In this document: positions 12,529 to 35,279 of the stretch, piece by piece
Position numbering within the stretch: position 1 is the stretch's first letter
Layout: each line of letters begins with the position of its first letter
From: a virus
DNA: 64,000 bases
IMG/VR virus record: IMGVR_UViG_3300027704_000014
Location: 1-64,000 of that record
Reading direction: 5' to 3' (one strand)
Notes under the pieces: generated by a model
Databases searched by the model: none
What the model was told of the DNA's origin: nothing
Seen by the model: only the letters and a program-made list of their open reading frames with translations
Position numbers and translations under genes: made by a program

Positions 12529-15225
12529 ATGAGTTACGTTGACGCCTTCTTCGAGAAGAGCAAAGATATTATACATGTAGTTGAGCGTGTAGATGGTAAA
12601 AGAATTATTCAACAATTAAAGCCAGAGTATAACTTTTATGTGCTTGACCCTAAAGGTAAGCAACAAAGTATATACGGAGATACAGTTTCAGAAGTACGTT
12701 GCAATAGCGATAAAGACTTTAAAAAGAACATTGCAATGAACACCCACAACAAGACATTTGAAAGTGACATCAAGCCACTAAACAAAACACTTGCAAAGCA
12801 TTACACAAATGCAGAGCCACCTAAACTACACACAGCCTTCTTTGATATTGAAGTTGACTTTGACCCACTGAGAGGTTACAGTTCGCCGGATGATTCGTTT
12901 ACCCCTATAACAGCTATTGCAATATATTTACAGTGGATGGATGCTATGGTATGTTTAGCAGTTCCACCTAAAACATTAAGTTGGGGACAAGCCCAAGCAA
13001 TAGCGGCAAAAATGCCCGAAGTTATATTGTTTCGTACAGAGGGAGAACTACTTAAAACATTCCTAGAAGTAATCGAAGACGCTGATATACTAAGTGGTTG
13101 GAACAGTGAGGGTTATGATATTCCTTACACATACAATCGTATTGTGCGTACAATCGGCAAAGCAGAAACTCGTAAGTTATGTTTGTTTGGTAAGACTCCA
13201 ATGAAGAAAACCTATGAGGCATTTGGTGCAGAGCGTACTACATATGACTTAATAGGGCGTGTACACTTAGACTATATGCAACTGTATAGAAAGTACAACT
13301 ATGAGGAACGTCATAGTTACAGACTAGACTACATTGGCGAGATGGAAATAGGTGAGAAGAAAGTAGCATACGAAGGCTCACTAGATAAACTTTACAATCA
13401 TGACTTTGAAAAGTTCTTAGAATACAACATTCAAGATACATTGTTATTGCATAAACTAGATGTGAAGTTACAGTTTATTGACTTAGCAAATACTATTGCA
13501 CATGACAACACTGTATTACTGCCGGTAACAATGGGTGCTGTGGCTACAACAGAACAAGCAATCATAAACGAATCACACAGACGTGGTCTTGTTGTTCCTG
13601 ATAGAATTAAAAGCAGAGACGATAACACACAAGCGGCAGGTGCGTATGTTGCGTTTCCTAAGAAAGGATTCCATGAATGGGTAGGCTCAATGGATTTAAA
13701 CAGTCTATACCCTAGTGTATTCCGTGCGTTGAATATGGGTAACGAAACTATCGTTGCACAAGTTAGACCCGAGTACACTGACGAAGAGATCTACAATTCA
13801 GTTACATTAGAGAAGAAGTCGTTTGCTGATGCTTGGTTAGGTAAGTTTGGATCAAACGAATACGAACTAGTTATGGCTAAGGATATTGACCGCCCACTGA
13901 AGTTAGACATGATAAACGGTGAGACTGTAGATTGCACAGGTGCAGACATATACAATCTAGTATTCAACAGTGATCAACCATGGAATATCAGTGCCAACGG
14001 TACTATATTTAAAACAGATGTACTAGGTATTGTGCCAGGATTACTAGAGCGTTGGTATTCGGAACGACAAGTGTTGCAGGCTAAGAAGAAACAAGTAACT
14101 ACAGATGCTGAGAAGATGTTTTATGACAAGCGACAGTTAGTTAAGAAGATTAACTTGAACAGTTTGTATGGTGCGATACTTAATCCACATTGTAGATTCT
14201 TTGACAAACGCATTGGACAGAGTACTACACTCACAGGCAGAGCTATTACTAGACACATGGGTGCTGAAACTAATCGCATGCTAACAGGCGAGTATGATCA
14301 TACAGGAGACTGTATGATATACGGTGATACTGACTCTGTTTACTTTAGTGCTGTACCGGCCTTACCGGAAGGACAAACATTAGATATGGATAGTGCAATT
14401 AAATTGTATGATCATATCTCTGACACAGTTAGTGATACATTCCCACAGTGGCTCAATGATCAATTCAATGTGCCACTAGCAGCAGGCGCAGTTATGGTAG
14501 CTGGACGCGAAGTAGTTGGGCGATCCGGGCTGTTTATTACTAAGAAGCGTTATGCTATTAAGGTATTAGACTTAGAGGGTTGGCAACCAGAGGGTGGCAA
14601 ACTAAAAGTAATGGGACTAGACTTGAAGCGTAGTGATACGCCAGAGTTTATACAAGACTTCTTAGAAGAGATATTAACTGATTGTCTTGATGGCTTAACA
14701 GAGGAAAGCGTCATTGATAAAGTACGCGACTACAAGAAGTACTTTAAAGGATTACCTAATTGGAATAAAGGTATGCCTAAACGTGTAAACAATCTAACCA
14801 CATACGCCGCTAAGATTGCAGAGAAGGCAAGAGTTAATGCGCCGGACAACTATAGGCTACAACGACTTGACGCAATTAAAGATGAAGGCAAAAAGAAAGG
14901 TGGGGCAATACCAGGACATGTTAGAGCAAGTATTAATTGGAACAACTTTAAACAAGCAGTCGGCGATAACTACAGCATGACTATTACAGATGGCATGAAA
15001 GTTATTGTGTGCAGACTTAAAAGTAATGCAATGGGCTATGACAGCATAGCATATCCTACTGATGAACTACAGTTACCTCAATGGTTTAAAGAGTTGCCGT
15101 TTGACGAGGAAGCAATGGAGATGGCAGTACTGGATAAGAAAGTAACCAATGTCATTGGTGCTATGGGATTTGACTTGACTCGTATACATGAAAGCGAGAC
15201 TATGCAACAGTTTTTTGAATTTTAA
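12529..15225 (+). CDS. Family B DNA polymerase with 3'-5' exonuclease (T4 gp43-like)
   Basis: ExoI FFDIEV, motif A SMDLNSLYPS, motif B KINLNSLYG, motif C YGDTDS, KKRYA. Confidence 0.97.
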   Translation: MSYVDAFFEKSKDIIHVVERVDGKRIIQQLKPEYNFYVLDPKGKQQSIYGDTVSEVRCNSDKDFKKNIAMNTHNKTFESDIKPLNKTLAKHYTNAEPPKLHTAFFDIEVDFDPLRGYSSPDDSFTPITAIAIYLQWMDAMVCLAVPPKTLSWGQAQAIAAKMPEVILFRTEGELLKTFLEVIEDADILSGWNSEGYDIPYTYNRIVRTIGKAETRKLCLFGKTPMKKTYEAFGAERTTYDLIGRVHLDYMQLYRKYNYEERHSYRLDYIGEMEIGEKKVAYEGSLDKLYNHDFEKFLEYNIQDTLLLHKLDVKLQFIDLANTIAHDNTVLLPVTMGAVATTEQAIINESHRRGLVVPDRIKSRDDNTQAAGAYVAFPKKGFHEWVGSMDLNSLYPSVFRALNMGNETIVAQVRPEYTDEEIYNSVTLEKKSFADAWLGKFGSNEYELVMAKDIDRPLKLDMINGETVDCTGADIYNLVFNSDQPWNISANGTIFKTDVLGIVPGLLERWYSERQVLQAKKKQVTTDAEKMFYDKRQLVKKINLNSLYGAILNPHCRFFDKRIGQSTTLTGRAITRHMGAETNRMLTGEYDHTGDCMIYGDTDSVYFSAVPALPEGQTLDMDSAIKLYDHISDTVSDTFPQWLNDQFNVPLAAGAVMVAGREVVGRSGLFITKKRYAIKVLDLEGWQPEGGKLKVMGLDLKRSDTPEFIQDFLEEILTDCLDGLTEESVIDKVRDYKKYFKGLPNWNKGMPKRVNNLTTYAAKIAEKARVNAPDNYRLQRLDAIKDEGKKKGGAIPGHVRASINWNNFKQAVGDNYSMTITDGMKVIVCRLKSNAMGYDSIAYPTDELQLPQWFKELPFDEEAMEMAVLDKKVTNVIGAMGFDLTRIHESETMQQFFEF

Positions 15226-16019
15226 TGATAGCAGATAATACCTTACTAACAGCAGCCAGGGCAATAGGATTTGGCAATCCTAACAGACGTCTAGAGCAAT
15301 TCGATGACTTTACTAATCAGTTTCATGTATGGGTGCATTCAAGTAAGCAAGAAGTAGCAGGCTTACCTAACAAACGTAATCCTAATATTGTTAGTGGTGT
15401 TACTGATGCGTTCAACCAACTATACGGAATGTATGACAAGATAGGAATACACGATGGCGAGTATGGATATCATAATTTGTGTGTTGAGGACAGAACCACA
15501 TACAACCTAAGCGAAGCAGACTGTATAGTTATCAGTCATCCGTTTAGTGCAGACGGTAAATGTTCGCATGCAAAAATACAAGAAGCAGATAAACTAAACA
15601 TACCAATCTTTATTGATTGTGCGTTCTTTGGTATTTGCACAGACATAGACTTTAATTTTAAGAAATATAAAAATGTACAAAGTGTATGCTTTTCACTAAG
15701 CAAAGCATTCGGTACAGGTTTAACCAGAGTAGGGCTATTGTACACAAAGGATAAATTTCCTTGTACAATCTACAACGAATGGCAGTATCCGTTGATCGCG
15801 AGTGCAGAATACCATTACAGTAATATAAAAACTATAGGGCCTGATGATCTGCCCATACAGTATATGCAATCTCAGATTAAGATATGCGAGGAACTAGGAC
15901 TTGAACCAAGTCCAACCATTATATTTGGTTTGGACTATACCGATAAGTACAGTGATTTCAAACGTGGACCAGTGAATAGAGTATGCATTACAAGGAGACT
16001 AGAACTTGACAAAGGATAA
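15225..16019 (+). CDS. Short PLP-dependent aminotransferase-like protein (fold type I)
   Basis: IFIDCAF and FSLSKAFGTGLTRVG (PLP-lysine motif). Confidence 0.65.
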   Translation: MIADNTLLTAARAIGFGNPNRRLEQFDDFTNQFHVWVHSSKQEVAGLPNKRNPNIVSGVTDAFNQLYGMYDKIGIHDGEYGYHNLCVEDRTTYNLSEADCIVISHPFSADGKCSHAKIQEADKLNIPIFIDCAFFGICTDIDFNFKKYKNVQSVCFSLSKAFGTGLTRVGLLYTKDKFPCTIYNEWQYPLIASAEYHYSNIKTIGPDDLPIQYMQSQIKICEELGLEPSPTIIFGLDYTDKYSDFKRGPVNRVCITRRLELDKG

Positions 16020-16269
16020 AAAAGCCGCACTGAAAGAGGCGACTACGGATACATTACTAGCAACAGTAATAAACTTTCCACTTAACATGCTATTGTTATT
16101 CGTAGCTAATAGAACATTTCTATCATGGATGGAAACAGAAACAGAACAAATATTTTGGACGTCAGTATATTTAACAATAGTATTTTCTGCCGTTGCTATA
16201 ACTAGAAAGACGTATGTTAGACTATATTTTAACAAAAAGAATCTAAAAAAACAGGCTAAAAAAACTTGA
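16006..16269 (+). CDS. Small two-TM membrane protein
   Basis: Two hydrophobic segments and a basic tail (RKTYVRLYF). Confidence 0.55.
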   Translation: MTKDKKAALKEATTDTLLATVINFPLNMLLLFVANRTFLSWMETETEQIFWTSVYLTIVFSAVAITRKTYVRLYFNKKNLKKQAKKT

Positions 16270-16294
16270 CTTACCTAAATAACAAGTGTATAAT
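16266..16294 (+). promoter_or_regulatory. sigma70 promoter with an embedded TAAATA
   Basis: TTGACT-17 nt-TATAAT; TAAATA at 16276-16281 within the spacer. Confidence 0.7.
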
Positions 16295-16327
16295 AACACA
16301 CAACAACACTCAACACGGAGAATAGAG

Positions 16328-17083
16328 ATGGCTGATAATCATATCAAGAACATATTAAAGGATGTACTAAAGCATACACATGGCTTAGGTATATTCGAAA
16401 TGGTAAAGATCACAGGTGACTTGGAGAAAACAGAAATACAAACTGTTGATCCAGAGAAGACTGTAATCTTTAAAGGCAACACAGTAACACCGGTGCCAGA
16501 ATTTGCAGACGCAACATTAGGCCTAAGCAGAATGGGTGTACTACAAGGTTACTTACAATATCCAGGATTTGATAGCGAAGATGCTACAGTTAAGATTGAG
16601 ACGCAAGTAAGAAACGAAGTTGAAGTACCTGTTGAAGTAGCATTTAAAAGCACAGACGGTAACGATGCAAACTATCGCTTTATGTTAGCAGATGTTGTTA
16701 ACCAGCAAATGAAAGATATTACATTTAAAGGTGCTGACTTTGAAGTGAACATTGTTCCTACTGCAAAGAACTTAAAAGACTTAGGATACTTTAATGGCAT
16801 CCTTGGTGCTTATGAGGCAACGTTCTCACCCAAGACTGACGGCACTGACTTAACATTCCACATCGGTGATGGTGTTAGTGATAGAGCTAAAGTACATATC
16901 AATGGTAATATTGATGGTGGAATCAAACGTGAATGGAAATGGCCACTAGACATTGTGTTGAAGATCCTAAGACTTAGCGATAGTGCAAACTGTGTTTTGA
17001 GTATTAATGACTCAGGCTTAATGCAGATTAAAGTACTAAGCGGTCTAGGCGAATACACTTACTTACTACCTGCAAAGGGTTAA
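16328..17083 (+). CDS. Probable DNA polymerase sliding clamp (gp45/PCNA-like)
   Basis: About 250 aa near the polymerase, with a YTYLLPA C-terminus typical of clamp folds; GGAG SD before ATG 16328. Confidence 0.65.
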   Translation: MADNHIKNILKDVLKHTHGLGIFEMVKITGDLEKTEIQTVDPEKTVIFKGNTVTPVPEFADATLGLSRMGVLQGYLQYPGFDSEDATVKIETQVRNEVEVPVEVAFKSTDGNDANYRFMLADVVNQQMKDITFKGADFEVNIVPTAKNLKDLGYFNGILGAYEATFSPKTDGTDLTFHIGDGVSDRAKVHINGNIDGGIKREWKWPLDIVLKILRLSDSANCVLSINDSGLMQIKVLSGLGEYTYLLPAKG

Positions 17084-17086
17084 TGA

Positions 17087-18649
17087 ATGAGAGACTTAGG
17101 TAAAACACAGAAAGACTATGCGGTATACTTACCGGCTATTAGTAGTTTCTATACAAAACAACTAGATAAGATTGTTAGTAAAGTACCTAACGAAAGCAGA
17201 GTGCCAGCAGGCTTTGAACACGGAAACGAAGGTTTAGATTTCCTCAAAGACAAAGACACTTATTTTCATTACCCATATGGGCTATACTCGGCGGGGCATG
17301 CACATTTAGATATTGCAAAAAGCCACGCCGATGAGCCTATGATTCAAGACCGAGATAGAAATGTTGTTAAGGTTATGTTGGGCGACTCCGGTGGTTTCCA
17401 GATAGCAACTGGTGTTATGAAAATGGATTGGGCTAATGCTAAAGATCCTAATGACCCAGCAAGAACAGCAACATGTGAAAAGATATTGCGTTGGTTAGAG
17501 CATACAGCAGAATGGAGCATGACGTTAGACATTCCAGCGTTTGCCGCTGTTGAACCTCTAAGCAGTAAAACAGGACTTACGGAGTTCTCAGACACATTAG
17601 ATATCAGTCTACTAAACTTACATTACTTCACAGCAAATAGAGTACCGGGTGCTACTAAGTTCCTTAACGTGTTGAGTGGAACGGATGAAGCAACGAGTAA
17701 AGAATGGTATGATGCTGTTAAGAGTTTCTCCGATCCTAAGTTTGTAGGTGAAGCATATGGTGATGCATCACGCACACTAGAAGGTTATGCATTTGCAGGT
17801 ATCAATATGAAAGACATGCACTGTGTCTTAAACCGCTTGTTAGACTTACGAGAGGACGGGCTGCTTGAGGGCAAGGACTGGATACACTTCCTAGGTACAG
17901 GTAAATTACAATGGGCATGTTTCTTAACAGCAATACAACGCCAGTTAAGGAAGTATGACAATCCTAACATCACACTATCATTTGATGCGGCAAGTCCTTT
18001 TGTTAATACAGCATACGGACAAACATACGCACACAATTTCTTTGAACCAGGTAAGTTTGGTTACTTCATGGACAGAGCATTCGATCAACAAGATCTAGTA
18101 GGTAGTACATTACCTGCACCGTTTGGACATAGTCCTGTAATGAGTAGACTTACAATGGGCGACCTTTGTACTATGAATGCAGGCGATGCAGACAAGAACG
18201 GTAACTTTAAGTTTAGCGAAGGACAACCACTCACAGACAAGCACGGTGAGCCTAAGTTAGACACAGAAGGCAACCAGTTATATGCAGAACGTGATAGCAC
18301 AACGTGGGACACTCAGACATATTTGTATTATATGGGTCATAGTGTGTTCAATCACATTGATGCAGTACAAGAAGCAAACAGACTGGCAGATGTTGAACGT
18401 TTCAGAGAAAACTTTGATTACAAAGGCTGGCGTAAGGCCAAGAAGAGTAGTAAGGCAGGCGAACTTAGTCCTTACGTTCCTGCTAACATTTTGATGTTTC
18501 AGAAGTTTGCAGAGGATTTCTTTAATCCTGCTAACCCTAACCCAAGACAAATGCTCACAGACTATAAAGAGTTTATAACGCATGTTAGTTTTGCAGGTGA
18601 AAGTGATACGTCTACAGAAGAAGTAATGAACGAGTTTTTTGAGTTTTAA
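17087..18649 (+). CDS. dpdA: TGT-fold DNA 7-deazaguanine transglycosylase (DpdA/DpdA2-like)
   Basis: DSGGFQ, MTLDIP, IHFLG and SFDAASP motifs of the TGT family; folE/queE nearby; adjacent to the clamp. Confidence 0.8.
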   Translation: MRDLGKTQKDYAVYLPAISSFYTKQLDKIVSKVPNESRVPAGFEHGNEGLDFLKDKDTYFHYPYGLYSAGHAHLDIAKSHADEPMIQDRDRNVVKVMLGDSGGFQIATGVMKMDWANAKDPNDPARTATCEKILRWLEHTAEWSMTLDIPAFAAVEPLSSKTGLTEFSDTLDISLLNLHYFTANRVPGATKFLNVLSGTDEATSKEWYDAVKSFSDPKFVGEAYGDASRTLEGYAFAGINMKDMHCVLNRLLDLREDGLLEGKDWIHFLGTGKLQWACFLTAIQRQLRKYDNPNITLSFDAASPFVNTAYGQTYAHNFFEPGKFGYFMDRAFDQQDLVGSTLPAPFGHSPVMSRLTMGDLCTMNAGDADKNGNFKFSEGQPLTDKHGEPKLDTEGNQLYAERDSTTWDTQTYLYYMGHSVFNHIDAVQEANRLADVERFRENFDYKGWRKAKKSSKAGELSPYVPANILMFQKFAEDFFNPANPNPRQMLTDYKEFITHVSFAGESDTSTEEVMNEFFEF

Positions 18650-18650
18650 T

Positions 18651-18851
18651 ATGAGTGAAATAGATCGCAGTATAGAAGGTGTATTTGTTAATGAAGGATA
18701 CGAAGTTTCAGTCCTAATAAAGGATTCAGCGTTAGTAGAGTTCACATACATGCATAACGGTAAGCCCATGACAAGTACACGGGTTGAACACAATACTGCG
18801 GCAACACTTGTTGATAATTTAATAGCAGAAGGTTATATTAGATATGGATAG
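18651..18851 (+). CDS. Hypothetical protein
   Basis: 66 aa, operonic. Confidence 0.5.
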   Translation: MSEIDRSIEGVFVNEGYEVSVLIKDSALVEFTYMHNGKPMTSTRVEHNTAATLVDNLIAEGYIRYG

Positions 18852-24061: not shown

Positions 24062-24751
24062 ATGAAAAAGCATGAAGAAGTAATCAAACGATTACAAGAT
24101 AGTAACACTCGTTACTGGGCAGGAGATAACATCTCAGAACACCTCAAAGAAGGTGATCAAGAATTACTAATTGACGAAGCAACCGAAGCATTCGAAGGTG
24201 TACTAGATGCACTAGTTATTGATAGATTCAATGATCCGAATAGTCACGGAACAGCAAGACGGTTAGCAAAGATGTACTACAAGGAAATTATGGAAGGGCG
24301 TTATGTTGGTATGCCTAATGCAACAGCATTTCCTAATCATCTAGATGATGGTTATAAAGGCATGCTGGTTGTGCGTAGTGAACTTAAAAGTATGTGTTCA
24401 CATCACCATCAACCAGTGACTGGTGTAGCATACATCGGTATCATTGCCGCGGAGAAACTAATTGGCCTAAGCAAGTACACAAGAATAGCACAATGGTGTG
24501 CTAGGCGTGGTACATTACAAGAAGAACTATGTAATGATATTACTAGGGAGATACAGAGGGCTACTGGTTCAGAGAATGTAGGTGTTTATATTCAAGCAAC
24601 GCATGGTTGTTGTGAGAATAGAGGCATTATGGCTACTAGTAGTTTAACACAAACAACTGTACTAGAAGGGTTCTTTAAAACAGATCCTGGTACCAAGAAG
24701 GAATTTATGGATAACATTCATTTACAACAACAACATGCGTGTGGTAAGTAA
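24062..24751 (+). CDS. folE: GTP cyclohydrolase I
   Basis: SMCSHHHQP, IGLSKYTRI, LQEEL and HGCCENRG motifs. Confidence 0.95.
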   Translation: MKKHEEVIKRLQDSNTRYWAGDNISEHLKEGDQELLIDEATEAFEGVLDALVIDRFNDPNSHGTARRLAKMYYKEIMEGRYVGMPNATAFPNHLDDGYKGMLVVRSELKSMCSHHHQPVTGVAYIGIIAAEKLIGLSKYTRIAQWCARRGTLQEELCNDITREIQRATGSENVGVYIQATHGCCENRGIMATSSLTQTTVLEGFFKTDPGTKKEFMDNIHLQQQHACGK

Positions 24752-26854: not shown

Positions 26855-27775
26855 ATGAATTTAAAATATAGTGAAACATTCTATAGTCCACAAGGCGAAG
26901 GTGCGTATGTGGGCATTCCTAGTTTGTGGATACGTTTTTTCTTGTGTAACTTACAGTGTAACGGCTTTGGACAAGATGAGCCTACTAAGCCTGACACATG
27001 GGAACTGCCTTACGAGACTATAGACATCTCTGAGATTAAGGTAGTAGAAGAACTTCCTGTATTTGACAAAGGATGTGACAGTTCATATACATGGGCTAAG
27101 AAGTATAAGCATCTCATAACAGATCGTACTGTAGAGGAGGCTGTAGACGAGCTTACAGCGTTATTACCCACAAGTACATTCAAGCATGCTAGGACAGGAC
27201 AAAGTGCTGACATGGTGTTTACAGGCGGCGAGCCAATGCTTAAACAAGCACAACTAAGTATGGTTGCCATTATGCGTGAGTTTGCAAAGCGTGGTGATTG
27301 CCCTGCTAGAGTTACAGTAGAGACAAACGGAACTAAAGCTATACAAGCAGACTTAGTCGATCTAATAGACGACATGCACATTAGTTCAGAGTATGGTGGA
27401 ATTATACCTGATGAGAAATCCAATGATATTGAATGGTATTGGAGTGTTTCACCTAAACTGTGGACCACTGCCGGTGAGGTAAGTAAACGTGCAATAAGAC
27501 CTGAAATAGTCGCAGACTATGCTAAGGCAAGCAATAAAGGACAATTAAAATTCGTAGTAAACGGCTCCAGCGAGAGTTGGGACGAAGTAGAAGAACATAT
27601 ACTAGCATTTAGAGAAGCTGGTGTTACTTGGCCTGTATGGATTATGGGTGTTGGTGGTACTGTCGAGGGACTTAAGATGACAGAAGCTATTATTGCAGAT
27701 GAAGCTATACAACGTGGCTACTATTATACTAGTCGTGTCCATGCTCATATTTACGGAAATGCAATAGGAAAATAA
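26855..27775 (+). CDS. queE: 7-carboxy-7-deazaguanine synthase (radical SAM)
   Basis: ETFYSPQGEG, IRFFLCNLQC...GCDS, FTGGEP, VETNG, SVSPK and RVHAHIYG motifs. Confidence 0.9.
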   Translation: MNLKYSETFYSPQGEGAYVGIPSLWIRFFLCNLQCNGFGQDEPTKPDTWELPYETIDISEIKVVEELPVFDKGCDSSYTWAKKYKHLITDRTVEEAVDELTALLPTSTFKHARTGQSADMVFTGGEPMLKQAQLSMVAIMREFAKRGDCPARVTVETNGTKAIQADLVDLIDDMHISSEYGGIIPDEKSNDIEWYWSVSPKLWTTAGEVSKRAIRPEIVADYAKASNKGQLKFVVNGSSESWDEVEEHILAFREAGVTWPVWIMGVGGTVEGLKMTEAIIADEAIQRGYYYTSRVHAHIYGNAIGK

Positions 27776-34172: not shown

Positions 34173-35279
34173 ATGAATGAAGTAACAGCAAGAGCATCAG
34201 TGGTAACACCGATTGTTGAAAGAGCAATGGCAGCTAACAGGCCCATCTTCCTTTGGGGAGCACCAGGTATTGGTAAGTCTGAATTAGTTGCAAAAATAAC
34301 GGAAAATCTTCCAGGTAACAATCTTATGATTGATATTCGTTTGGCACTAATGGAGCCAACGGATCTACGAGGATATCCTTTCCGTAACCCAGATACAAAT
34401 CAAATGGAATGGTCTCCACCAGTTGACCTTCCTAGCATGGAGCTCGCAGAACAATACGACACAATTGTAATGTTCTTAGACGAGTTGAACTCAGCACCTC
34501 CAAGTGTGCAAGCAGCTTCGTACCAGTTGATCCTTAACGGTAAGATTGGTCAATACCAAATGCCAAGCAATGTAAGAATTGTAGCGGCTGGTAACAGAGA
34601 GACTGATAGAGGTGTTACCTTTAGAATGCCGGCTCCGTTAGCAAACAGGTTCCGTCATATTAATATGGAAGTGAACTTTGAAGATTGGCAGCAATGGGCA
34701 GTGAACAATAACATCCACAGTGAAGTTGTTGGTTACTTATCATATGCCAAGCAAGACTTATTTGACTTTGATCCAAAGACTAGCTCACAAGCGTTTGCTA
34801 CTCCACGTTCATGGTCTTATGTAAGTGAAATCCTTAACGTACCGGGCTTTGCAGATGCAGATCGTAAAGAGCAACTTGTAGAACTTGCAGGTGCTATTGG
34901 TGAGGGGATGGCTATTAAGTTTAACGAGCATCGTAAGATTGCTTCGGACTTGCCTAACCCAACTGATATCCTTAACGGTAAGGTAAAGGAGTTGAACTCC
35001 AAAGTAGCAAAAGAAATATCAGCCAAGTATAGTTTGGTGGTAGGACTTGCATACGAAATTAACGAAGCATATAAAGAAGCAGGTAGTGTCGACAAAGACA
35101 TGGGCGTAATGCTTAACCATATGATTCGTTTTGCCTTCAATAACTTTGAGCCTGAGATGGTTATCTTTTCATTGAAGACACTAATGAAAGATTACAAGAT
35201 CGTGTTTAACTTCCGTAAGGTGTTAGACAAAGATGTGCAATCTACCTTTAACGACAAGTACTTAAAGTACATCGTTTAG
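34173..35279 (+). CDS. MoxR-like AAA+ ATPase
   Basis: GAPGIGKS Walker A, MFLDELN Walker B, AAGNR, ANRF and TPRSW motifs. Confidence 0.9.
   Translation: MNEVTARASVVTPIVERAMAANRPIFLWGAPGIGKSELVAKITENLPGNNLMIDIRLALMEPTDLRGYPFRNPDTNQMEWSPPVDLPSMELAEQYDTIVMFLDELNSAPPSVQAASYQLILNGKIGQYQMPSNVRIVAAGNRETDRGVTFRMPAPLANRFRHINMEVNFEDWQQWAVNNNIHSEVVGYLSYAKQDLFDFDPKTSSQAFATPRSWSYVSEILNVPGFADADRKEQLVELAGAIGEGMAIKFNEHRKIASDLPNPTDILNGKVKELNSKVAKEISAKYSLVVGLAYEINEAYKEAGSVDKDMGVMLNHMIRFAFNNFEPEMVIFSLKTLMKDYKIVFNFRKVLDKDVQSTFNDKYLKYIV

Follow-up and report, generated by a model that had tools for sequence, protein, structure and literature searches.

A transglycosylase-fold protein of jumbo phages shares a C-terminal motif with the phage DNA polymerase and is a candidate client of the sliding clamp

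Modification of DNA with 7-deazaguanine is a major anti-restriction strategy of phages, and it poses the question how the inserting enzyme finds its substrate and leaves the DNA of the host alone, and how replacement becomes complete in some phages. The question is raised here by a locus of the IMG/VR record IMGVR_UViG_3300027704_000014, a viral contig of 84,915 b estimated to be about 24% complete and considered for this reason as a jumbo phage fragment. The stretch of DNA that we analyzed, called the window below, is its first 64 kb. It carries what appears to be a replication module composed of a T4-like family-B DNA polymerase, a sliding clamp (PCNA/gp45 type) and, 3 nt after the clamp gene, a divergent enzyme of the superfamily that includes tRNA-guanine transglycosylases (TGT) and DpdA. 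One short aromatic peptide closes both the polymerase and this putative enzyme, preceded by a linker that is acidic and probably flexible. A clamp-docking motif on a transglycosylase would be a concrete answer to the question, namely recruitment through the phage replisome.

A C-terminal peptide shared by the polymerase and a neighboring protein

The elements on which the argument is built are the following.

12529..15225, + strand: family-B DNA polymerase, 898 aa, T4-like, with exonuclease domain (Pfam, PHROG)
15202..15225, + strand: polymerase tail M-Q-Q-F-F-E-F and stop, presumed clamp-interaction peptide (translation of the open reading frame)
16328..17083, + strand: predicted PCNA/gp45-type sliding-clamp protomer, 251 aa (structure model)
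17087..18649, + strand: 520-aa protein of an unannotated family of jumbo phages, predicted DpdA-like transglycosylase with TGT fold (structure model)
18626..18649, + strand: tail of the transglycosylase-like protein, M-N-E-F-F-E-F and stop (translation of the open reading frame)

The 898-aa polymerase matches the Pfam models DNA_pol_B (E 1e-34) and DNA_pol_B_exo1 (E 1.2e-18) and, over residues 4-896, the DNA polymerase family phrog_262 (E 6.2e-191). Its open reading frame (ORF) ends ...HESETMQQFFEF (ESETMQQFFEF*, the asterisk standing for the stop), and the 520-aa ORF at 17087-18649 ends ...STEEVMNEFFEF. A preliminary description of this DNA had located these two ..FFEF ends and placed the second gene 3 nt after a clamp candidate. 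Its coordinates proved exact: the ATG of the M-x-x-F-F-E-F* peptide lies at 15202 in the polymerase and at 18626 in the TGT-fold protein, and the stop of the clamp candidate ends at 17083 with the next ATG at 17087. When the 30-nt DNA stretches encoding the two tails are compared, 22/30 bases are identical and 8/30 differ, including synonymous differences (GAA vs GAG). The resemblance accordingly concerns the protein and does not reflect a fresh DNA duplication.

We scanned with loose tail patterns the 402 ORFs of at least 40 aa present on both strands of the entire 84,915-b contig. Only four end in such a pattern: the polymerase, the 520-aa protein and two short ORFs (49-70 aa) that are implausible as genes, one being antisense and the other lying within the 520-aa gene. 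No further plausible clamp client was thus found by tail pattern among the 402 ORFs. As the scan leaves just two plausible genes and the motif recurs in relatives, a chance match is unlikely, and the tail shared by polymerase and transglycosylase-like protein is confirmed as real. There is a precedent for the function of such an end, since in T4 and RB69 the C-terminal tail of the polymerase binds the clamp. The title of PDB entry 1b77 describes the C-terminal peptide of this T4-type polymerase (RB69) on the gp45 clamp.

The 520-aa protein belongs to a large family: of the 8000 candidates scored, 5863 proteins reach E <= 1e-3, and 760 clusters are counted at 50% identity. Members in cultured phages are encoded by Pseudomonas jumbo phages of the PA5oct type (49% identity), by Sinorhizobium phage Phosso and by Vibrio phage 2.275.O, and distant ones come from jumbo phages of Xanthomonas, Erwinia and P. 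putida and from phage NCTB; all phage records examined label the protein 'hypothetical protein'. Our first survey includes 84 loci with a match (the window, PA5oct, Phosso, 2.275.O and 80 related viral contigs), among which 74 have the complete ends of both proteins, nine being without a complete polymerase C-terminus and one having a truncated homologue. In all 74 the polymerase ends ..FFEF*, ..NTF(G/N)xLF(S/D/T)F(D/E) or ..LFG(W). The pairs can be strikingly close: one contig (L013) has the identical 9-mer NTFGSLFSF in both proteins, and in Vibrio phage 2.275.O the polymerase and the homologue form a pair ending ..NNTDLFDW* and ..NNNDLFGW*. In the PA5oct homologue the motif reads ..SFNSLFDV...

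To quantify this resemblance, we scored the last 62 residues of each protein for their best match to a profile of the polymerase tails. The controls were 677 other ORFs of these loci, 150 aa or longer and on the same strand. The median is 10.4 in 82 homologues vs 0.5 in the controls, and 67/82 homologues are above the 99th percentile of the controls. The motif persists at 36-100% core identity. In Phosso, where the polymerase ends ..TTFNDLFTF*, the gene of the enzyme is 175 kb off, beside primase and DnaB, and its product still ends ..KIVEGLF*. A position of the motif at the extreme C-terminus is restricted to 2.275.O and the clade to which the window belongs. Most relatives (L013-L080 and others; e.g. 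L013:7891-9594) present after the motif an acidic extension of 30-45 aa with a conserved block ..(E/D)(V/I)D(L/F)xNPDDDxLRxLEE.., which is absent from the window protein (17087-18649). This extension may be a second docking module, and the window's clade would either have lost it or never had one.

Distant members of the family end differently. Those of PhiXhv-15 (Xanthomonas; L165:5572-7278) and Voja-6 (P. putida; L166:5872-7242) carry Lys-rich tails (..KQKVKKKKK* and ..GERSKAKK*, respectively), and that of NCTB (L167:5617-7212) ends ..AGAVAGW*; these ends may represent a different hold on DNA. In the three records neither the window-type polymerase nor the window-type clamp (A2) was detected with our narrow clamp profile, which could miss a divergent clamp. 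Another member without the tail is found in the chromosome of Rhizobium wenxiniae (L164:8001-9383 on NZ_JACHEG010000001.1), with two integrases and the ABC-3C defence genes CTD7, MC3 and DUF3732 as neighbors, so the family also occurs in cellular mobile or defence islands. The LF/FF tail is therefore absent in 4/4 of these cases, that is, in three phage records without detectable window-type polymerase or clamp and in one bacterial island.

Similar ends were noticed in a few other proteins. In PA5oct (MK797984.1), the large terminase (128846-130441, EST35_0204) ends ..DEDDDSMPMPFLF, an acidic linker followed by PFLF, and a 200-aa mini Pol III alpha fragment (143938-144540, EST35_0220; phrog_11778, E 1.7e-63) ends ..EEEAEQEPDPFKLFS, an acidic linker followed by PFKLFS. 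Judged by their sequence, both look like clamp-client tails. A tail of the PFKLFS* type is missing in the mini Pol III alpha homologues of Phosso and of L093-L095, and we give little weight to that of EST35_0220 for this reason. In 2.275.O, the gene right after the transglycosylase-like gene (NVP2275O_469, L004:8723-9835) encodes a protein with a weak, sub-threshold Amidoligase_2 match that begins MFNELFDF.., as an N-terminal copy of the ..DLF(D/G)W tail type of this phage. Finally, two small ORFs located downstream of the enzyme gene and belonging to no Pfam or PHROG family contain the motif near their C-termini (NEFNSLFDV, score 11.4, in the 196-aa L071:10218-10808; STFQNLFAY in the 209-aa L052:11512-12141) and are possible further clamp clients.

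Predicted folds of the clamp and of the transglycosylase-like protein

The idea of a clamp-tethered enzyme supposes that the gene between the polymerase and the transglycosylase-like gene encodes a clamp, as the preliminary description had supposed for 16328-17083. The start was set to 16328 because homologues begin MA.NYIKDILKD. By sequence, the only PHROG match is phrog_12062 'unknown function', and phmmer against PDB gave chance matches only (E >= 0.16), with no similarity to gp45 detected. The AlphaFold model is more informative: built from an alignment of 20 homologues, with a predicted local distance difference test (pLDDT) of 78.9, it corresponds to a complete clamp protomer. Foldseek returned at least 500 matches at E <= 0.001, the top ones being all PCNA (best E 3.6e-10, TM 0.66). 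Superposition by VIA-align gave Z 17.4 with PCNA 8dr4_G (root-mean-square deviation (rmsd) 3.1, 227/251 residues aligned), Z 16.9 with T4 gp45 6drt (rmsd 2.9, 212 aligned) and Z 16.7 with RB69 gp45 1b77 (rmsd 2.9, 213 aligned). On these models, the product of 16328-17083 is predicted to fold as a PCNA/gp45-type sliding-clamp protomer, in agreement with the initial supposition.

Homologues of both polymerase and clamp are present in 74/84 loci of the first survey and, in a second one, in 106 non-redundant loci among 155 with a match. In Phosso, the clamp homologue directly adjoins the polymerase gene. Another Phosso gene (439, a 'virion structural protein' upstream of the transglycosylase gene) was also considered as a clamp and rejected, hhalign against the clamp profile giving a probability of 0.9%.

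The 520-aa protein escapes sequence-based annotation. It has no match in Pfam (E <= 0.01) or PHROG, phmmer against PDB gives 0 matches at E <= 10, and megablast of 12529-18851 against phage records gave none. Its AlphaFold model (pLDDT 80.9) is poorly modelled or extended at residues ~303-328 and 360-408, a large insertion, and pLDDT falls below 50 at residues 503-520 of this monomer model, consistent with a flexible tail. All 24 Foldseek matches against PDB at E <= 0.001 are tRNA-guanine transglycosylases; DpdA 7ui4, the DNA preQ0 insertase, comes at rank 43 (E 1.7e-3). The best VIA-align superpositions are with TGT 2ash_B (Z 19.3, rmsd 5.0, 307 aligned) and 1iq8_A (Z 19.2, rmsd 4.7, 297 aligned), at an identity of only ~12-15% to the structurally matched TGTs. 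Among the neighbour clusters of the ESM Atlas, the one at rank 15 (score 0.93) has PF01702 in 17% of its members.

The active site could be examined in an alignment of 50 diverse members, 27-49% identical to the window protein. Nine positions are invariant in the 50 members: D100, S101, G103, Q105, D148, P150, H267, G270 and D300. They include the three aspartates expected for transglycosylase chemistry.

17384..17401, + strand: D100-S-G-G-F-Q motif with the presumed general acid/base Asp; aligns with LTDSGGFQ (D89) of E. coli Tgt
17528..17530, + strand: D148, presumed base-recognition Asp; invariant, aligns with D143 of E. coli Tgt
17984..17986, + strand: D300 in ..SFDAASPF.., presumed nucleophile Asp; invariant, aligns with MFDCVMPT (D264) of E. 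coli Tgt

In E. coli Tgt, these roles belong to D89, D143 and D264. The correspondence is found by hhalign of the family profile with E. coli Tgt (E 3.5e-4, probability just 37%, 203 columns), which pairs GDSGGFQ with TDSGGFQ, LDIP with FDEC and SFDAASP with MFDCVMP. According to PMC10164549, from which the presumed functions are taken, three aspartates are invariant in TGT and DpdA (Asp95, Asp130 and Asp256 of DpdA) and two of them are essential; D100, D148 and D300 correspond to these three residues. The invariance of the active-site Asp and of DSGGFQ argues for chemistry of the TGT type. We consider the 520-aa protein, on the basis of its modelled fold and its active site, as a very divergent member of the TGT/DpdA superfamily, which by sequence falls into no described subfamily. 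The earlier designation as a DpdA-like transglycosylase can consequently be retained for the TGT fold and the three conserved Asp; it does not hold as far as membership in a described DpdA subfamily by sequence is concerned, and the zinc motif is absent (see below).

Predicted docking on the clamp and co-variation of the tails

Does the enzyme tail fit this clamp? A trimer co-fold had been proposed in the preliminary description, and we ran one with three copies of the clamp and residues 486-520 of the enzyme. The interaction prediction score from aligned errors (ipSAE) is 0.62 (runs 0.63, 0.62 and 0.60) vs 0.02 for the best of 3 controls, and it drops to 0.00 in the control with the clamp replaced. 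In calibration, the mark used for these co-folds was reached by 58/80 solved complexes and by 2/110 mismatched pairs. Between runs, at least 61% of the contacts agree, with a pLDDT of at least 53 for the partner and of 90 for the clamp chains. Tail residues 507, 509-510, 513-514 and 516-520 touch the clamp. On its side, the contacts are 44 and 47 in the first domain, the connector-loop residues 129 and 131-136 and, in the second domain and C-terminus, residues 229-231, 246 and 248-251. The transglycosylase tail is thus predicted to dock in the canonical pocket of clamp clients, between the domains and under the connector loop. What such a result shows is a likeness to clamp-peptide complexes, not binding.

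If both tails occupy the same pocket, they might be expected to change together. Two types of motif, FF and LF, are distinguished by p4, its first aromatic position, which is F or L; the motif was located as a hydrophobic residue followed by Phe, the registers of L081 (MFF) and L061 (LY) being set by eye. Among the 10 loci with an FF polymerase, the transglycosylase motif is FF in 8, ambiguous (MFF) in 1 and LF in 1; it is FF in 1 of the 64 loci with an LF polymerase. Motif pairs from the same genome score 23.5 vs 19.1 for shuffled ones, and 0/10,000 shuffles were as high, this being mostly a deep-clade signal. Independent contrasts were taken on a FastTree of the enzyme cores, tails removed, in which four polymerase switches lie on supported branches: the homologue switched with the polymerase in 3, against it in 0 and stayed unchanged in 1 (2/0/2 when L081 is counted conservatively).

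The clamp itself enters into this pattern. At its residue 231, Leu is found in 9/9 loci with FF in both proteins, and the other 65/74 loci have Ala, Val or Ile. The same split is observed in the second survey, with Ala, Val or Ile in the other 97/106 non-redundant loci, an extension that brought no additional FF lineage. Of all 251 clamp columns, residue 231 has the highest mutual information with polymerase p4, its lead being modest (0.362 vs 0.335 for the next), and it tracks both motifs in 3/3 independent contrasts, too few for significance. The predicted contact of least error in the co-fold is between clamp residue 231 and F517, the p4 of the tail, that is, a pair of positions that co-vary. 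The co-variation of the two tails, suggested beforehand as a check, is therefore found at the level of lineages (3/4 contrasts, 0 opposite; residue 231 in 3/3); within the largest clade it is not significant. Beside this, L006 and L079 have similar clamp connector loops and polymerase tails, and their transglycosylase cores belong to different FF-type lineages. This pattern suggests an exchange of the polymerase-clamp module, with the enzyme motif matching the resident clamp.

With the clamp fold and the lineage-level co-variation of the tails both found, the overall interpretation proposed at the outset is supported. The reading that we favor, and hold to be moderately probable, is that of a clamp-tethered, DpdA-like DNA transglycosylase. 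The shared motif, the two folds, the conservation of the active-site Asp, the lineage-level co-variation and the predicted docking come from computation; from them we infer that the enzyme binds the clamp and acts on DNA, and likewise which base is inserted and when. In such a mechanism, the common peptide would be a clamp-interaction motif inserting into the hydrophobic pocket under the interdomain connector loop, and clamps loaded on phage DNA in replication would recruit the enzyme. At this place the enzyme would swap guanine for a 7-deazaguanine base made by the products of neighboring FolE/QueE-type genes, with Asp300 as nucleophile and Asp100 as acid/base, as in TGT and DpdA. The tether to a phage-specific clamp would give the 520-aa enzyme access to all new phage DNA for this exchange, and selectivity against host DNA. 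A wider proposal, which we advance only tentatively, is that the family forms a new DpdA-like branch belonging physically to the replisome, in which the enzyme rides the clamp by a peptide mimicking the polymerase and replaces G during replication, the clamp serves as a self-marker confining hypermodification to phage DNA, and the acidic module recruits a further partner in most lineages.

Genomic context, alternative readings and known systems

The surroundings of the locus provide candidates for synthesis of the base.

24062..24751, + strand: GTP cyclohydrolase I (FolE), first step of 7-deazaguanine synthesis (Pfam PF01227, E 9.4e-38)
26855..27775, + strand: radical-SAM protein, possible QueE (Pfam Radical_SAM, E 4.8e-4, below the curated cut-off)
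34173..35279, + strand: AAA+ ATPase, possible clamp-loader subunit (weak similarity)

Downstream, the window also encodes an NAD-dependent protein of the sugar epimerase/dehydratase family, a phosphoribosyltransferase, a MazG-like protein, an Fpr-like reductase and a FEN-type exonuclease. A QueD paralogue proposed in the window corresponds to phrog_17812 'unknown' and has no PF01242 match. PA5oct, whose homologue (EST35_0316) is 49% identical to the window protein, has the same gene order, with polymerase, clamp homologue, small gene, enzyme and GT-like gene, then QueE and RNase H; its 7-carboxy-7-deazaguanine synthase gene, downstream of the homologue, is at the position corresponding to 26855..27775. 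FolE, QueD and MazG are found elsewhere in the PA5oct genome, which encodes many tRNAs, and no QueC or TGT is annotated among its 462 features. PMC12191111 reports that PA5oct DNA resists five restriction enzymes, from which its authors inferred a modified G, and names QueE and PTPS; Iyer et al. 2021 (PMC7824862) attribute to PA5oct 'a deazaguanine synthesis/incorporation system'. In Vibrio phage 2.275.O, QueF, QueC, FolE and related genes are beside the homologue.

The FolE and possible QueE genes apart, the AAA+ ATPase is a possible clamp loader as judged from its similarities. Among the PHROG families, 'clamp loader' phrog_168 is matched at E 3e-4 and 'ATPase' phrog_1297 at E 1.7e-90; Pfam AAA_5 is matched as well (E 9.1e-7), and in PDB it matches RFC2 (E 0.0018), midasin AAA being better. 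It is syntenic with the PA5oct 'ATPase' EST35_0335. Between the polymerase and the clamp, a 264-aa gene (15225-16019), whose start overlaps the polymerase stop codon, shows a weak match to the aminotransferase fold (PF00155, E 0.0011, below cut-off), and the same interval holds a gene (16006-16269) for a small DUF7220-like protein of 87 aa (E 6.5e-4). The window polymerase is uninterrupted; that of PA5oct (L002:611-5837, EST35_0311-0313) consists of two coding sequences split by a 'Hef-like homing endonuclease' gene.

A number of observations weigh against a clamp-tethered DNA transglycosylase. As to docking, the co-fold used our own shallow alignments and three clamp copies, a set-up different from that of the calibration, and its pass may reflect memory because the arrangement resembles solved PCNA-peptide complexes. 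As to the motif, 15/82 homologues are not above the 99th percentile of the controls, and in most relatives it lies 32-47 residues from the C-terminus, before the acidic extension, unlike the T4 paradigm. The co-variation has its mismatches, L084 (polymerase FF, transglycosylase LF) and L033 (the reverse). Once controlled for phylogeny, it rests on 3-4 switches, with a sign test p of 0.25, or 0.5 with L081 counted conservatively, and the test cannot reach significance with so few independent pairs. Within the main clade of 53 loci, own-genome pairs score 26.15 vs 25.54 for shuffled ones, 1305/10,000 shuffles reaching the observed value, and the informative sister pairs are 5 positive, 3 negative and 2 zero.

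For the enzyme, the CxCxxC zinc motif is found in 0/50 family members, the window protein having 4 Cys (130, 246, 278 and 361), and the Zn site is described as conserved in DpdA and TGTs in PMC10164549. The sequence link to TGT is very weak, PF01702 being touched by 2/50 members (best E 0.0058). Compared with PDB, the broad family profile finds TGT only as a match of 10 residues (E 2.5) that ranks under three chance matches; searched against the whole record of CP220, a DpdA3 phage, the family profile A3 found nothing at E <= 0.01, in a search made without positive control. Three family members used as tblastn queries matched no phage of Campylobacter, Cellulophaga or Flavobacterium. Concerning the context, the Pfam QueD and QueC models match nothing in the contig, nor is a clamp loader established there beyond the weak AAA+ similarity, the contig covering about 24% of the genome. 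Finally, the PA5oct clamp homologue (EST35_0314) is labelled 'structural protein' from virion mass spectrometry; the RNR, FolE, QueD, ligase and RNase H of PA5oct bear the same ESI-MS/MS (electrospray tandem mass spectrometry) note.

Part of these facts could be accommodated otherwise. The shared peptide might dock on another hub of the replisome, such as the host beta clamp, the helicase-primase, the single-stranded DNA-binding protein (SSB) or the clamp loader. The bacterial beta-clamp motif is QL(S/D)LF, which the common ..F-G-S-L-F.. form of the motif resembles, and acidic, aromatic-ended tails, a type to which the ends described here belong, mediate SSB/helicase-polymerase contacts in T7 and E. 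coli. The internal motif and the conserved acidic block ..NPDDDxLRxLEE.. of most relatives could bind a second partner, and the Phosso transglycosylase gene adjoins primase and DnaB, 175 kb from polymerase and clamp. We nevertheless find another hub fairly unlikely: the co-fold puts the tail in the canonical pocket of the phage clamp (0.62 vs 0.02, and 0.00 with the clamp replaced), pocket residue 231 follows the motif type in 3/3 contrasts and comes first of 251 columns, and T4-type family-B polymerases anchor to their clamp by a C-terminal tail, as the title of 1b77 indicates. The resemblance of the tails could also be devoid of shared function and arise from convergence on a generic acidic-aromatic terminus or from past recombination between neighbors. 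Short aromatic motifs are indeed simple, the fine-scale co-variation is not significant and the possible polymerase-clamp module exchange in L006 and L079 shows that recombination occurs. Yet 67/82 homologues stand above the 99th percentile of 677 neighboring ORFs, the motif is kept at 36-100% core identity and in Phosso with genes 175 kb apart, the tail DNA differs at 8/30 bases, and the motif type of L006 follows the resident clamp and polymerase, not the tree of the transglycosylase cores. A functionless resemblance is already disfavored by these data and seems to us very improbable.

A different doubt concerns the substrate. The 520-aa TGT-fold protein could act on something else, tRNA of the phage or the host, a nucleotide or a protein, as CBASS Cap10 does, or be a non-catalytic accessory of the replisome, the tail merely localizing it. 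By sequence it matches no described DpdA subfamily, the canonical zinc motif is in 0/50 members, PA5oct carries many tRNAs, and recruitment of TGT-fold enzymes to protein modification is described in bioRxiv 10.1101/2025.04.06.647259. Against this, the three Asp and DSGGFQ are invariant across the 50 members in spite of their 27-49% identity to the window protein, a docking motif of clamp type points to DNA, and 7-deazaguanine genes are linked to the family in the window, PA5oct and Vibrio phage 2.275.O. In addition, PA5oct DNA behaves as G-modified, and no other transglycosylase is annotated among the 462 features. We thus regard a substrate other than DNA as unlikely, in fact quite so, and retain the clamp-tethered DNA transglycosylase as the preferred reading.

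The author of the preliminary description knew of no clamp-coupled DpdA, and we found none in literature searches, in which most papers were judged from their abstracts. In neither of the two main papers on phage DpdA, one of them PMC10516641, does the word 'clamp' appear. In the abstract and discussion of PMC10516641, insertion of 7-deazaguanine is described as post-replicative and without a recruitment mechanism, and DpdA3 phages with complete G replacement are reported, the route being unexplained. The enzyme itself may have been noticed before in the deazaguanine work on PA5oct; the docking motif would be the new element, combining DpdA-type chemistry with T4-type clamp docking. If true, this would supply the missing inserting enzyme of PA5oct-like Pseudomonas phages, PA5oct being cultured, provide a mechanism for very high replacement and revise the view of 7-deazaguanine insertion as an untethered post-replicative step. 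Mimicry of the polymerase tail could then serve to flag new clamp clients in phage genomes.

Compared with DpdA (bDpdA and DpdA1-DpdA4), the window protein shares a TGT-type TIM-barrel, the three Asp and the linkage to FolE/QueD/QueE-type genes. In phage phiST, according to PMC10516641, the DpdA3 gene is similarly placed, between deazaguanine genes and the polymerase gene. In contrast, the 520-aa protein is longer, beyond detection by Pfam TGT or PHROG, devoid of CxCxxC and equipped with a polymerase-like docking motif. Bacterial and archaeal Tgt and ArcTGT are its best structural matches, and their DSGGFQ and FD..P motifs align with its own; unlike them, it lacks the zinc motif, has a large insertion, is encoded in a phage replication module and bears a replisome-type tail.

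For docking, the closest parallel is T4, in which gp55 and gp33 use the same gp45 site. Like gp43 of T4/RB69, whose peptide on gp45 is the subject of 1b77, the window polymerase is a family-B enzyme with a short hydrophobic/aromatic end that follows a flexible linker. On gp45, the peptide of T4 ligase (6drt) is an example of a second enzyme reusing this kind of peptide, and the site predicted here is likewise under the connector loop. The clamps are alike in fold (Z 16.7-16.9, rmsd 2.9, 212-213 residues aligned) without detectable sequence similarity. The second client here would exchange bases, unlike the ligase and the transcription factors of T4, and in most relatives the client motif is internal and followed by an acidic extension.

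A more remote parallel is offered by eukaryotes. The PCNA-interacting peptide (PIP) boxes of DNMT1 and UNG2 tether these enzymes to PCNA. They belong to a different domain of life, perform methyl transfer or base excision, have another motif consensus and are not homologous to the window protein. What they would have in common with it is the principle: a short motif that binds the clamp links the replication fork with an enzyme that has to act on all new DNA.

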